A stretch of 44,333 bases of DNA from Oculatellaceae cyanobacterium bins.114 (GCA_033764315.1 JANRJA010000243.1:1-44333), one strand, 5' to 3'. Counted from the first letter of the stretch, positions 1 to 3,940 are shown. Notes: generated by a model not told the origin, from the sequence alone. Numbers and translations are program-made.

Positions 1-44
1 CCCCTCTGGGGTGCGCCTCTCACAACCCATTTGGGATTGCTATA
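1..44 (-). mobile_element. Partial MITE (family A, TATAGCAATCCCAAAT terminus), cut by the window edge
   Basis: Reverse complement (TATAGCAATCCCAAATGGGTTGTGAGAGGCGCACCCC...) matches the left part of the complete copy at 40735-40828. Confidence 0.85.
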
Positions 45-248
45 TTACCAATCACCTCAAAAGACAAGAGAATCCCCTTTCATGTTGAACTCAATCCACC
101 AGAAGGTGGGATAAAAGTACGTAGCTTTGTCAAATGTGAAGATATTCGCTCAATTTCTGTAGAACGTTTGGAAAAGTGTTGGGGTACAGTTTTTCCGGAA
201 ACACTAGCCGCAGTGGAAGATAGACTCAGAATTTTGATTGGACTGTGA
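3..248 (+). pseudogene. C-terminal part of a MazF/PemK-family endoribonuclease toxin, apparently interrupted by MITE A
   Basis: Manual translation from 45: LPITSKDKRIPFHVELNPPEGGIKVRSFVKCEDIRSISVERLEKCWGTVFPETLAAVEDRLRILIGL*. PITS, IRSISxxRL and the final helix are PemK/MazF hallmarks. Not in the ORF track. Confidence 0.8.
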
Positions 249-361: not shown

Positions 362-1114
362 ATGCCAGTTCTTCATCCGTTACCTGTTTCTCAGACAACT
401 ACTCAATCCACTCTGCCAATTTCGCAGCTGTCGGTGGATGGCTTGACTCAACTTTCGAGTTTTGATGCAGCCATTCATGCAGTTGCTGACCATTATGCCT
501 TTGAGCAGCATCCCTATTTGCTGTGGATGCAAGCCTCAAACACCACTCGTGATGCCTTTCGTTATAGTCAGATCCCCTTTCGCTTTGCGGTAGAGTCTTT
601 TTCGCAAGCACTGGCGGCAGTTTTAGCAAGAGTTCCTCAATTAGACGATCGGTTAGCTCTGGCAGAGAACGTCGCTGAAGAACACGGACATGGCGATCGC
701 TGGAAGTCTCACAAATATACCTTTCGGCAATATTTGCTAGCGTTGGGTGCTTCACCAGAAGAGCTAACTAACCCTTGTCCAATTGGTGTTTTGTCCTTCA
801 ACCAATCCATTCTCAACTTTTGTTTGACCCAGTCTGGCGAAGCGGGAGCCGCTGCCCTGGGTGTGATCGAGCATTTGTATGTGCCGATCAGTGCAGCGAT
901 CGCCCGAACAGTGCATCAACGGAGCTGGACGGCTCCGGGGTCGCAATCTCACTACACGGTGCATGAAGTGTTGGATGTCGAACATGCGCGAGATTTGTTA
1001 GCGATCGCCTCTCCTCGATGGGAGTGTAAGCATTCTCGACCGCTCGTGGCTCAAGGATTGCTGCTGGGTTCTCACTATTTTTGGACGCTATACAATGACT
1101 TACCCCGCTTTTGA
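362..1114 (+). CDS. Heme-oxygenase-like diiron oxidase (iron-containing redox enzyme; CADD/PqqC/TenA fold)
   Basis: Diiron-ligand pattern E107..H117, E170, H201-x3-D205-x2-H208 (NVAEEHG..SH; LGVIEHLY; HYTVHEVLDVEH); N-terminal HPY. Confidence 0.8.
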   Translation: MPVLHPLPVSQTTTQSTLPISQLSVDGLTQLSSFDAAIHAVADHYAFEQHPYLLWMQASNTTRDAFRYSQIPFRFAVESFSQALAAVLARVPQLDDRLALAENVAEEHGHGDRWKSHKYTFRQYLLALGASPEELTNPCPIGVLSFNQSILNFCLTQSGEAGAAALGVIEHLYVPISAAIARTVHQRSWTAPGSQSHYTVHEVLDVEHARDLLAIASPRWECKHSRPLVAQGLLLGSHYFWTLYNDLPRF

Positions 1115-2216
1115 TCTGGGTTCTGACCCGATTTCTGAGATTGCCTTTGCTCAGGTGCGCGAAGACCCGCGTGTGGAACTGAGTCTGATTGATTACCTGG
1201 CAGAACGGCAGAACCGCCCATTACGAGTGCTGTTAGTGGCATCTGGGGGATGCACCGCTTTGAGTTTGCTGGTTTCACCCGCGATCGCCCAGATCGACGC
1301 GGTGGATTTGAATCCGGCTCAGTTACATCTAGTAGAATTGCGGCGACAAGCCCTGGTGCATCTGTCGTTAGCGGATCAATTACACCTGATTGGGGCATAC
1401 CCTTTCCCTGAGGACGAATCGCAACTTGCCCCTGCCCATCATCGACAGGAGCTTTACAACAAACTGCGTCCCTGGTTACCAGAACCCACACAAGCCTTTT
1501 GGGATGCCCGCTCAGAGCAAATCGCCTTTGGCATGAACCGAGTTGGACGGTTTGAGGCATTGTTTCGAGAACTGGCTCAGGCGGTTGCAGCCCAAGGATT
1601 AGATCCGCTGAAGCAACCTGCGATCGCCCTATCTAGCCCTCTTTGGAATTCCCTGTTTGAGCAGGTGTTTGAGCGTCACAAACTGGCGCAAGTGTTTGGA
1701 GAAGCCGCTGTCAACTACTCGATGGATCGCAGTTTTGGCGAACACTTTGCCGATATGTTTGCTCAGGCATTACGCAGCAAAAACCCAGCCCAAAATTACT
1801 TTGTCACTCAGGTTTGGGGCGATCGCTACACCACAGGTCAAAACGAAGTGCCCCTCTACCTGCAATCTCCAGTTCAACTAATGATTCGCCATTTGGGAGT
1901 GGAGCGGTTGCATCTCCATCAAGGGACATTAGCCGATGTGATGACTCGACTGGCTCAAACGGCTCCCTTTGACCTGATTCAACTGTCAAATATTTCAGAT
2001 TGGATGCCTGTTCCGGAGTTGCACAACTTGTTGGCGATCGCCACTTGTTGCCTTAACCCTGGTGGTGCATTGTTAGGGCGCAGACTCAACGGCGATCATC
2101 ATCTTGCAACACTGATGGCAGAGCATGTGCAGGTTAAATCTGAACTCAGTCAACAATTGCATCAAGCCGAACGGTCTTACTTTTATCGAGAAGTGGTAGT
2201 GGGGTTTGTTGAATAG
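1095..2216 (+). CDS. DUF3419/BtaA-like SAM-dependent protein (putative 3-amino-3-carboxypropyl transferase)
   Basis: FAQVREDPRVE, VASGGCTAL, AVDLNPAQ and LSNISDWMP motifs typical of BtaA/DUF3419; overlaps the upstream gene by 20 nt. Confidence 0.8.
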   Translation: MTYPAFDLGSDPISEIAFAQVREDPRVELSLIDYLAERQNRPLRVLLVASGGCTALSLLVSPAIAQIDAVDLNPAQLHLVELRRQALVHLSLADQLHLIGAYPFPEDESQLAPAHHRQELYNKLRPWLPEPTQAFWDARSEQIAFGMNRVGRFEALFRELAQAVAAQGLDPLKQPAIALSSPLWNSLFEQVFERHKLAQVFGEAAVNYSMDRSFGEHFADMFAQALRSKNPAQNYFVTQVWGDRYTTGQNEVPLYLQSPVQLMIRHLGVERLHLHQGTLADVMTRLAQTAPFDLIQLSNISDWMPVPELHNLLAIATCCLNPGGALLGRRLNGDHHLATLMAEHVQVKSELSQQLHQAERSYFYREVVVGFVE

Positions 2217-2257
2217 TCAATGGGCAATAGTCAATGACTCCATGTGCGCTTCCTTCA

Positions 2258-2323
2258 AGATCCCCGGTTGCTGTGATGCACATCAGACCCCTTTAAGGAG
2301 GCTGAACGAGCAACCGGGGATCT
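2258..2323. repeat. Inverted repeat AGATCCCCGGTTGCT...AGCAACCGGGGATCT
   Basis: Perfect 15-bp arms; related palindrome at 38105-38137. Confidence 0.7.
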
Positions 2324-2375
2324 ATCTATGTTGTTCACTTTATCCTTCGTCTTTTATCATTTTCCTTTCCTTCTT

Positions 2376-3227
2376 ATGCCTCTTACAATTCACTCAATTC
2401 CATCAAATGATTACTTACAGGGGAAAATAGCTTCACATCGTTTGTTCTATCAACCCAAGTTGGTGGAATTGGAGCAAACCGCCAGTTATCCGCTGGGAGA
2501 AGACACCTTTCAGTTGGATCATGGCACGGATTATTTTGCTTTTTTCGATCGCTTGGGTCAGGCCAGCTACTATGTCGTTTTGGATGAGGAAAAAGCGATC
2601 GCGGTAGGAGCGGCGGTGCTTCGGTATGTGCCTGATGGCTGTGGAGATAAGCCCCGTCCAGTCTGGTATCTGTGTGACTTGAAGGTGCATCCCGACTATC
2701 GTCGTCAGCATCTATCCCTACAGTTGTTTCGTCATGCGTTTGCACAACATTTTGCGGAGTGCGATCGCGGCTATGCGATTTCGATGAATCCAGGGGATGG
2801 TTCTCCTAATCGGGTTGTGCAATTGCTGCGGTTTGTCTGTCCGGTGGAGTTCCGCTGCACGGCTACTTTAGAAATTTATAGCCTCGATGCTGCCAGTATG
2901 CAGCGCATCGAACCCTTGTTGCACCATTATCGGGGAGCGATTTCTTATCTGTCGCTCAAGGGCATCAAAGATTTGCGGCTTCAGAGCACTGGAACCCTGT
3001 TGCCGCTGCTACATGTTCAATTTGGTGAGACAGCACAGCACCCTCTCTCTCATCTCAGCCATTGTTCGCCTATCCCCGGTTATGCTCATATGTTTTGCGC
3101 TCCACGCGGAGATACACTGGCGATCGCCCTGAGTCAACAGGGCATTGTGCCTCAAGCCACCGCTAGCATCGTTAGTCACGGCATAGATAACAGCGATTGG
3201 CAGTTTGTATTAACGAGCGACATTTAG
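2376..3227 (+). CDS. GNAT-family N-acyltransferase with C-terminal extension
   Basis: WYLCDLKVHPDYRRQHLS acyl-CoA-binding motif; ATG at 2376 preferred over TTG at 2328. Confidence 0.75.
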   Translation: MPLTIHSIPSNDYLQGKIASHRLFYQPKLVELEQTASYPLGEDTFQLDHGTDYFAFFDRLGQASYYVVLDEEKAIAVGAAVLRYVPDGCGDKPRPVWYLCDLKVHPDYRRQHLSLQLFRHAFAQHFAECDRGYAISMNPGDGSPNRVVQLLRFVCPVEFRCTATLEIYSLDAASMQRIEPLLHHYRGAISYLSLKGIKDLRLQSTGTLLPLLHVQFGETAQHPLSHLSHCSPIPGYAHMFCAPRGDTLAIALSQQGIVPQATASIVSHGIDNSDWQFVLTSDI

Positions 3228-3401: not shown

Positions 3402-3926
3402 TTATTCCTCTTGATGTTCTTTCCAAAATTGCTCAGCAAACGCAACAGTGGGATGAATTGGGGCTTTGGGTTTGCTTTTGAGGGGCATGTTGGCTTCATG
3501 GGGAGTGCGATCGCCTTTGCGAGAGTTGCAGCGATCGCAGGCAGCGACGACGTTATCCCACGTATGAGTCCCTCCTCTAGAACGAGGCATGATGTGGTCG
3601 ATGGTTAAGTTGCGGGTGCTGCCGCAGTATTGACAGGTGTGGTTGTCGCGCCGCAAGACCTCGCGCCGATTGACCGGGGGCATTTTCCAGAGCCGTTCTG
3701 GGTTAGTGACGGTGAGGCGAATGTGTTCGGGTACGTGCACCACGAGACTAGGCGATCGCACCTGCCAACATCGGGCTGTGCTGAGTTCCAATGATTCGGC
3801 TTGCCCAGTCACTAGCAAAACAACGGCTCGTTTGATGTTAATTCTCGCTAAAGGCAAGTAGTTTCTAGAAAACACCACAACTGAGTTTTGCAGTACGGGC
3901 AGTTGACTGGGGCGACGAGCTTTCAT
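3402..3926 (-). CDS. HNH endonuclease (McrA-like, CxxC..HNH..CxxC)
   Basis: RRDNHTCQYCG, TIDHIMPRSRGG, NVVAACDRCN; GAGGAG 8 nt before ATG 3926 (alternative GTG 3935). Confidence 0.9.
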   Translation of the reverse strand: MKARRPSQLPVLQNSVVVFSRNYLPLARINIKRAVVLLVTGQAESLELSTARCWQVRSPSLVVHVPEHIRLTVTNPERLWKMPPVNRREVLRRDNHTCQYCGSTRNLTIDHIMPRSRGGTHTWDNVVAACDRCNSRKGDRTPHEANMPLKSKPKAPIHPTVAFAEQFWKEHQEE

Positions 3927-3940
3927 TGTAAACACTCCTC

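Follow-up and report, generated by a model that had tools for sequence, protein, structure and literature searches.

Gene content and organization of the locus

We analyzed a stretch of 44,333 nucleotides (hereafter the window) from the Oculatellaceae cyanobacterium bins.114 (JANRJA010000243.1:1-44333), which is contig C105:1-44333 of its genome (G000). Three genes near one end of the window encode a haem oxygenase-like dimetal oxidase (HDO), a DUF3419/BtaA-family enzyme predicted to depend on S-adenosylmethionine (SAM), and a GNAT-type acyltransferase. These genes had been put forward, from the sequence alone, as a candidate uncharacterized biosynthetic cassette of three co-oriented genes, the first two overlapping by 20 nt, and our listing of the open reading frames (ORFs) agreed with this layout:

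362-1114, plus strand: HDO gene, 250 amino acids (ORF call and PF14518 match)
1095-2216, plus strand: DUF3419/BtaA-family SAM-dependent enzyme gene, 373 amino acids (ORF call and PF11899 match)
2376-3227, plus strand: GNAT-type acyltransferase gene, 283 amino acids (PF00583 match and alignment of 17 orthologues; the ORF opens at 2328, which would give 299 amino acids)
1095-1114, plus strand: HDO/DUF3419 overlap, 20 nt, with the HDO stop region lying over the DUF3419 start

The overlap of the first two genes suggests translational coupling, and their reading frames overlapped or abutted in all 36 loci that have the same gene order. The homologous part of the DUF3419 coding sequence crossed the HDO stop in 26 of these 36 loci, while in the remaining 10 the DUF3419 homology began 1-19 nt past that stop, at query residue 12-14. 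For the third gene, homology set in at about residues 13-38 of the longer ORF and the 17 orthologues aligned from the ATG at 2376; the start is thus taken to be this ATG rather than position 2328, and the protein is therefore probably 283 amino acids long.

Conservation of the three-gene arrangement

The distribution of the three genes was evaluated by a profile scan with one genome per species, which yielded 79 loci that we banded by the identity of their DUF3419 proteins. In the band of 56% or more, linkage was counted over those loci with room on the needed side or sides:

DUF3419 identity 56% or more, 41 loci: HDO upstream in 35/37, GNAT downstream in 29/29, both in 26/27
DUF3419 identity 45-55%, 19 loci: both partners in 6/16, the 10 loci lacking them belonging to one Laspinema/Oscillatoria/Phormidium clade
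DUF3419 identity 35-44% (Uabimicrobium), 2 loci: both partners in 2/2
DUF3419 identity below 35%, 17 loci: both partners in 3/17 (L074, L078, L089), in other gene orders

When the ORFs of these 79 loci were clustered, only the HDO, DUF3419, GNAT and an FA_desaturase-family gene recurred across lineages. Among 300 other genomes drawn evenly from the phylum, the DUF3419 query matched five, strongly in three of them (G029, G144 and G100); the GNAT was found in exactly these three and the HDO in these three and one more (G083). All three genes stood side by side in G029, G144 and G100.

The DUF3419 sequences of the Laspinema/Oscillatoria/Phormidium clade (L053-L056, L058-L063) formed a long branch among the cyanobacterial cassette sequences, the exact position of which is loose, and in these loci the lone DUF3419 gene is flanked by a LeuA/HMGL-like gene and a gene for a STAND NTPase. 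The genome of a Pseudanabaena metagenome-assembled genome (L039) served as the positive control for the GNAT search of this clade. L039 itself carries a decayed copy, in which the DUF3419 match starts at residue 35 and the GNAT is present; no HDO or membrane-enzyme gene was found upstream, nor was an HDO found in that genome.

A second scan, made with a query alignment of non-cyanobacterial members, added 79 new loci (one of which, L105, lies on the same contig as L078). All three genes were present in 75 of these 79 loci, in the orders DUF3419-HDO-GNAT (72 loci), DUF3419-GNAT-HDO (2 loci), and with an upstream GNAT gene on the opposite strand (1 locus); three of the four loci without partners end at or near the DUF3419 gene. 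The record titles of this second branch name Poribacteria, several Legionella species, Rickettsia/Rickettsiales, Coxiella, Bdellovibrionota, Planctomycetota and Myxococcota. No other neighbor was common across the lineages of this branch, and no exporter, regulator or resistance gene was conserved beside the trio in the 158 loci of both scans. Six Legionella loci (L113, L149, L151, L154, L155 and L161) have a second DUF3419 gene after DUF3419-HDO-GNAT, which in L113 encodes 418 amino acids and scores 130 bits to the Pfam model. The trio was also adjacent in four of five loci on giant-virus-like contigs of IMG/VR, on both strands (GC content 22-40%, one contig being named GVMAG), and the fifth locus holds the HDO and DUF3419 genes at the contig edge.

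Gene fusions were sought by comparing an HDO profile with 1.84 billion representative proteins, which gave 1080 matches at E 0.001 or better (197 at 1e-30 or better), and by scanning the 20 longest proteins among the best 150 of the 1080. Eight of these were DUF3419-HDO fusions (P0136, P0144, P0161, P0178, P0184, P0234, P0236 and P0265), two were HDO-DUF3419 fusions (P0163 and P0259) and one was an HDO-GNAT fusion (P0210), and the DUF3419 part of every fusion was closer to the window protein than to BtaA of Sinorhizobium. As the DUF3419-HDO fusions have the reverse of the cyanobacterial operon order, they are not read-through artefacts of overlapping genes. One of them, P0136 (772 amino acids), contains an EF-hand insertion inside its DUF3419 part. 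An apparent HDO fusion of 984 amino acids in L045/L007 was rejected, being a spurious Arg/Pro/Gly-rich ORF of high GC content with its true start near the HDO domain.

The three genes thus co-occur in other genomes, adjacent across phyla and in several gene orders, and the linkage and fusions anticipated by the original prediction were both found. By these counts the linkage goes well beyond what chance would give. We consider it highly likely that they are one functional, self-contained biosynthetic module. Because many bacterial phyla and giant-virus contigs keep or fuse the trio, its members very probably make one product, as yet unassigned in the literature that we searched. Furthermore, since HDOs occur naturally fused to each of the two partners and no further gene is conserved, the HDO is predicted to stand at the centre of a system of three physically coupled enzymes, which would need only common metabolites.

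The oxidase is a complete dimetal HDO by its predicted ligands

The HDO matched the Haem_oxygenas_2 family (PF14518) of Pfam with 66 bits (cut-off 28.9). A complete E/H/E/H/D/H ligand set had been claimed for it, and the alignments upheld this: the candidate ligands E107, H117, E170, H201, D205 and H208 were unchanged in 16 of 16 aligned orthologues, three of them just 27-31% identical. In a phmmer alignment to CADD (1rcw), the same six residues faced the identical E81, H88, E142, H174, D178 and H181, which we take to be the metal ligands of that protein. The solved chains closest to the HDO by sequence were those of CADD/4-aminobenzoate synthase (1rcw and 8va9, E 4e-11), and a sequence search of the PDB with E up to 1 matched CADD alone, with no N-oxygenase and no SznF.

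CADD (CT610) is the self-sacrificing Fe/Mn 4-aminobenzoate synthase of Chlamydia, in which Tyr27 is presumably the sacrificial residue and Lys152 the amine donor. Residue Y52 of the HDO aligned with Tyr27, and a tyrosine was kept here in 90% or more of the orthologues. The position of Lys152, however, is Ile180 in the HDO (isoleucine being conserved in 90% or more), the match to the CADD family model of NCBIfam (TIGR04305) reached 27.8 bits, below its cut-off of 200, and CADD is not known to be linked with a SAM enzyme or a GNAT. As the six ligands and Y52 are kept while Ile180 stands in the position of Lys152, the protein is, judged by its sequence, a complete dimetal HDO yet not a CADD-type 4-aminobenzoate synthase. 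The self-sacrificial tyrosine of CADD is described in PMC13133933 and PMC9522330.

These comparisons bear on the reading that the three genes are unrelated neighbors, for example a CADD-like folate enzyme beside two others. CADD being the closest solved relative of the HDO, and the retention of the tyrosine opposite Tyr27, would both agree with this, but the linkage counts had already contradicted it, the genes being adjacent across phyla, in several orders and as fusions, and both the low TIGR04305 score and the isoleucine in place of Lys152 argue against a CADD function. We therefore give this reading practically no weight.

A search for transmembrane-like segments in the HDO found none, and all three cassette proteins look soluble. 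Among the 20 long HDO-profile matches that were scanned, four (P0135, P0137, P0139 and P0148) were cassette-type HDOs, 39-45% identical to that of the window, with a C-terminal PilZ domain, which hints at control by cyclic di-GMP in some lineages. The genome of the window also has a second HDO-like gene (C122:16865-17482; L104:4806-5495), which adjoins a DUF6464 gene and an EF-G-like gene, and whose product is 29% identical to the cassette HDO and matches PF14518 with 124 bits as well as TENA/THI-4/PQQC.

The DUF3419 protein is related to, and distinct from, BtaA

The second protein matched DUF3419 (PF11899) of Pfam with 126.8 bits (cut-off 28.2). Its SAM-fold motifs VASGGCTALSLL, AVDLNPAQ and SNISDWMP were kept across the subfamily and were recognizable in a BtaA of the btaA-btaB type, as expected from the original statement that it retains SAM-binding motifs. 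Among 8000 candidates, 719 relatives were found at E 1e-10 or better; the best 120 of these are 334-413 amino acids long and are named only DUF3419, BtaA family or by the enzyme name of BtaA, and the closest among the matches listed, from Oscillatoria sp. FACHB-1407, was 82% identical. An AlphaFold2 model (mean predicted local distance difference test score, pLDDT, 90.6) showed a class I Rossmann core into which a large helical segment is inserted, and for this model a Foldseek search of the PDB returned generic class I methyltransferases only (best query TM-score, TMq, 0.38). Sequence searches of the PDB with this protein and with the GNAT gave nothing under E 0.1.

BtaA transfers an aminocarboxypropyl group from SAM to diacylglycerol with release of methylthioadenosine (MTA), and to our knowledge BtaA, acting on diacylglycerol, is the single characterized member of the DUF3419 family. 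BtaA and BtaB make the betaine lipid diacylglyceryltrimethylhomoserine (DGTS) in Rhodobacter and rhizobia, as does BTA1 in algae. We used as a reference a Sinorhizobium replicon in which a DUF3419 gene of 421 amino acids (382 bits) is directly followed by a gene for a BtaB-like methyltransferase of 219 amino acids. The window protein was 25% identical to this BtaA, with the signature motifs of PF11899 in common.

It is conceivable that the locus is an ordinary DGTS locus, with the DUF3419 gene as btaA and btaB elsewhere, and the public names of close homologues ('BtaA family protein' or 'S-adenosylmethionine-diacylglycerol 3-amino-3-carboxypropyl transferase') would suggest as much. However, the identity to the BtaA that directly precedes a BtaB-like methyltransferase is low, and the Pfam score of the window protein is well below those of that BtaA and of the other DUF3419 protein of the same genome (253 bits). 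In a quick, midpoint-rooted maximum-likelihood tree of 55 rows (52 of 62 clustered DUF3419 ORFs, namely those of 300-460 amino acids, the window protein, its own paralogue and Sinorhizobium BtaA), all 37 trio-linked rows fell into one clade (Shimodaira-Hasegawa-like approximate likelihood ratio test, SH-aLRT, 99), apart from Sinorhizobium BtaA, the paralogue and a Gemmatimonadota group. No BtaB-like methyltransferase had been noticed in the window, and a BtaB-like query indeed had no match on its contig; elsewhere in the genome, which is 90.7% complete, it gave weak generic matches only (best E 6.5e-7, 31 bits). The constant partners are instead an O2-dependent dimetal oxidase and an acyltransferase, not an N-methyltransferase. 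The clustering with true BtaA that the prediction had named as its own refutation was thus not seen. On sequence comparison the window protein is not a BtaA orthologue, and an ordinary DGTS locus is very improbable.

A further alternative is that the DUF3419 protein performs other SAM chemistry (N- or O-methylation, or SAM cleavage or cyclization) that feeds the HDO, with the GNAT acylating the oxidized nitrogen. Its class I methyltransferase core, the restriction of its PDB matches to methyltransferases, the weak Methyltransf_25/12 Pfam matches in the window protein and its relatives, and the modest identity to a BtaA would all fit. There is also a precedent in streptozotocin synthesis, where SznE catalyzes SAM-dependent N-methylation. 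As in the proposed alternative, SAM-dependent alkylation thereby makes the substrate of an HDO, but SznE is not a DUF3419 protein, SznF has a cupin domain, no GNAT takes part, and SznF was absent from the sequence matches of our HDO. SznF performs the N-oxygenation of streptozotocin synthesis, and SznF, RohS, FlcE and BelK/HrmI are N-oxygenating HDOs, according to PMC13133933. Against this alternative, the family-specific motifs in common with BtaA argue for the reaction of DUF3419 itself, and CADD, rather than any N-oxygenase, was what the HDO matched among solved chains. We consider other SAM chemistry unlikely.

Other DUF3419 genes were found in different settings. The second DUF3419 gene of the same genome (C151:392-1453; L010) is not linked to the cassette; its product is 25% identical to the window protein, and it overlaps a gene for a PEP-synthase-like PEP-utilisers protein on a contig of 2953 bases. 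A search for longer relatives found only P0122, a PAP2_3+DUF3419 fusion of 658 amino acids with 29% identity. In Gemmatimonadota (L073, L076-L087), a distant DUF3419 branch (27-31% identity) directly follows a gene for a small COQ7/rubrerythrin-like diiron protein, with genes for an NAD_binding_4 reductase-like protein and an MMPL exporter nearby; this pairing is a second, unrelated association of DUF3419 with a diiron protein.

The acyltransferase has an atypical coenzyme A loop

The third protein matched Acetyltransf_1 (PF00583) over residues 68-144 only (29.6 bits, cut-off 20.7). Its AlphaFold2 model (pLDDT 87.1, predicted TM-score 0.82) showed a GNAT domain followed at the C-terminal end by an extension of some 110 residues. 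The model was superposed by VIA-align on AAC(2')-Ia over 166 residues (Z 13.5, root-mean-square deviation 3.3), and longer matches of 208-224 residues (Z 11.7-12.9) were to N-myristoyltransferases, a tandem GNAT, 3ddd and 5kf1; tabtoxin resistance protein (1ghe) was also among the structural matches (Z 12.5). Foldseek found the same families at low TM-scores.

In canonical GNAT proteins, the loop after strand 4 that binds the pyrophosphate of coenzyme A (CoA) has the motif Q/R-x-x-G-x-G/A. The corresponding loop here, R110-L115 in the numbering of the 283-residue protein, reads RQHLSL, and no glycine occurs there in any of the 17 aligned orthologues. As the glycines of this loop are missing, the donor may be something other than an ordinary acyl-CoA.

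A fourth gene in most cyanobacterial loci

An FA_desaturase-family gene lies directly upstream of the HDO gene in 32 of the 33 close loci with room for it, and encodes an integral membrane protein with transmembrane segments and three His boxes, resembling diiron hydroxylases and desaturases. This gene was missing upstream of the HDO gene of the window, and the best match in the same genome was just 23% identical (E 1.2e-7). The best NCBIfam matches of the fourth-gene protein were GntB (78-82 bits, cut-off 380), CrtW and CrtR, all far under the equivalog cut-offs (350-475), and a PDB sequence search with it gave nothing. The likeness to GntB (the L-arginine gamma-hydroxylase of guanitoxin synthesis), CrtR and CrtW as membrane diiron enzymes with three His boxes concerns the fourth gene only. 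GntB is called alpha-ketoglutarate-dependent in a review (PMC12371840), which is at odds with the family matched by the GntB model of NCBIfam. In one Leptolyngbya locus (RL_3_1, L014), the 319 bases upstream of the HDO ORF contain no cassette-type membrane gene, which may lie further upstream; the opposite strand of this locus carries a different desaturase gene, of the DesA family, at a distance of two genes downstream from the GNAT gene (L014:3795-4640, minus strand).

Proposed function of the module

Taking the family assignments together, we think it somewhat probable that the module combines alkyl transfer from SAM, oxidation and N-acylation in some order. The DUF3419 signature motifs common to the window protein and to BtaA of the btaA-btaB type support the SAM chemistry, and a SAM-dependent first step that makes a free alpha-amino acid group would be the most economical reading. 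Our favored explanation, to which we assign a probability of roughly 0.4, is a module giving an N-acylated, oxidized homoserine-type lipid. The DUF3419 enzyme would, like BtaA, move the 3-amino-3-carboxypropyl group of SAM onto a hydroxyl group of some abundant molecule, for which a glycerolipid such as diacylglycerol is the likeliest candidate, with release of MTA. The GNAT would then N-acylate the new alpha-amine, where BtaB would N-methylate it, and the HDO, either docked to the transferase or joined with it in one chain, would oxidize the new head group with O2, by hydroxylation, desaturation or oxidative decarboxylation, to yield the N-acylated, oxidized lipid. In most cyanobacteria the membrane diiron hydroxylase-like enzyme would add a fourth step; as its gene is missing in this genome, only the core product would be made here.

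A lipid as the acceptor is itself a tentative assignment, towards which we lean because of the BtaA precedent, the PAP2_3+DUF3419 fusion, the NAD_binding_4 and MMPL neighbors of the Gemmatimonadota branch, the integral-membrane nature of the fourth gene product, and the lack of a conserved exporter beside the trio. The alpha/beta-hydrolase (Hydrolase_4) gene found immediately 3' of the GNAT gene in both Uabimicrobium loci was also counted towards a lipid.

Several observations weigh against this explanation. All three cassette proteins look soluble, the closest solved relative of the HDO is a 4-aminobenzoate synthase, the best NCBIfam match of the fourth-gene protein is named for a hydroxylase of free L-arginine, and the GNAT lacks the loop glycines expected for an ordinary acyl-CoA donor. 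The distribution is patchy (3 of the 300 sampled genomes of the phylum), in G083 the HDO gene occurs by itself, flanked by a kinase gene and a urease gene, and L124 is a genuine exception in the second branch, with DUF3419 alone. The Laspinema/Oscillatoria clade likewise has DUF3419 without an HDO or a GNAT anywhere in the four of four genomes searched. In addition, most HDOs listed in a paper on RohS (PMC13133933) act on free small molecules such as amino acids, a fatty acid (UndA) or 2-aminoimidazole (RohS), and CADD acts on its own tyrosine.

Some of these observations would be better accommodated if the same module acted on a soluble acceptor, such as an amino acid or amine, and produced a diffusible compound derived from SAM, either a non-proteinogenic amino acid or an antimetabolite, with the GNAT either completing the molecule or protecting the producer by N-acetylation, as do MccE and tabtoxin-resistance protein. 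The free substrates of most HDOs in that list, the solubility of the three proteins, the GntB match of the fourth gene, a patchy distribution as in accessory metabolism, and the structural match of the GNAT domain to tabtoxin resistance protein all point this way. A comparable set of steps is known from the maturation of microcin C, in which MccD and MccE take part in aminocarboxypropyl transfer from SAM and decarboxylation, and a GNAT domain confers self-immunity. The two systems, compared by description only, correspond in their three kinds of step, in that a transferase for the aminocarboxypropyl group of SAM is joined by an enzyme that processes the new amino-acid group and by an acetyltransferase, but the microcin C enzymes belong to other families, the processing enzyme depends on pyridoxal phosphate, and the substrate is a peptidyl-nucleotide. 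A soluble product is also disfavored by the lack of any exporter, regulator or resistance gene conserved beside the trio, by the lipid substrate of the characterized DUF3419 member, by the lipid-type fusions or neighbors in other DUF3419 branches, and by the GntB match lying well under its cut-off (78 vs 380 bits). We regard a soluble product as possible and rather unlikely. A hydroxamate siderophore, made by N-hydroxylation and N-acetylation, was also considered and rejected, as the genes conserved next to the trio include none for a transporter or receptor.

Surroundings of the cassette in the window

In the window the cassette takes a cyanobacterial form of three genes, which lacks the membrane enzyme and in which a hairpin repeat lies between the DUF3419 and GNAT genes:

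2258-2324, no strand assigned: hairpin repeat in the DUF3419-GNAT spacer, 67 nt (inverted arms and RNA fold)

The arms are perfect inverted repeats of 14 nt (2258-2271 and 2310-2323), and the predicted RNA fold has an energy of -38.1 kcal/mol (z -6.0). A search of the same genome gave 109 candidate copies, 40 of which were scored; at least 40 matches were listed, including the window copy, the others having 85-94% identity. The hairpin is a dispersed genome repeat outside the enzyme set, and it is an insertion here, the corresponding spacer in relatives being about 25-30 nt or replaced by a gene overlap.

Upstream of the cassette there is a MazF/PemK-like toxin fragment (3-248, plus strand) at the contig edge. 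Downstream, on the opposite strand, a gene for a stand-alone HNH nuclease of 177 amino acids follows (3402-3935, minus strand), for which the best NCBIfam matches, far under cut-off, were to the HNH regions of IscB and Cas9d. Elsewhere the window consists of ordinary cyanobacterial DNA that carries genes for the phycobilisome, for sensor kinases and for an ABC-2/HlyD exporter, and a search of this DNA for a further cassette partner found none. A promoter and terminator scan gave counts no higher than those of shuffled sequence, and a plasmid search gave only three matches, all distant.

Relation to described systems and significance

The original prediction knew of no described pathway with this trio, and we likewise found no paper on the trio or its product among open-access papers and preprints (supplementary tables lying outside their coverage) on DUF3419, PF14518, aminocarboxypropyl and BtaA-like proteins, or among the titles listed for BtaA and giant viruses. 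For none of the HDOs listed in the HDO passages of PMC13133933 (RohS, SznF, FlcE, BelK/HrmI, UndA, BesC, FlcD, AetD, SktA and CADD) do these passages mention a partner of the DUF3419 or GNAT kind, and the words lipid, acetyltransferase and S-adenosyl are all missing from a 2026 mini-review on HDOs (PMC13108848). With the adjacency across phyla and the fusions, this bears out the view of the trio as a conserved, uncharacterized biosynthetic cassette.

HDOs are a rapidly expanding source of unusual oxidative reactions, and DUF3419 is a family with a single characterized member. The module described here joins the two with an acyltransferase in a compact form that is conserved in a wide range of bacterial phyla and on giant-virus-like contigs, and that is backed by natural fusions. 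It is small enough for expression as one operon, so that its product, be it a membrane lipid with a novel head group or a novel SAM-derived metabolite, would be directly testable. The range of its hosts (cyanobacteria, Poribacteria, Legionella, Rickettsiales, Bdellovibrionota, Myxococcota, Uabimicrobium and giant viruses) hints, speculatively, at a role in interactions with eukaryotes or prey. In a bolder and rather doubtful reading, the HDO-DUF3419 pair would be in effect one bifunctional enzyme, whose chemistry would be new to both families and which couples aminocarboxypropyl transfer from SAM to O2-dependent oxidation while the GNAT finishes the product, a novel class of N-acylated homoserine-type lipid or signal; this product might be shared through horizontal transfer between cyanobacteria, symbionts of sponges, predatory bacteria, intracellular bacteria associated with amoebae, and giant viruses, and might act at membranes in interactions with eukaryotic cells or prey.

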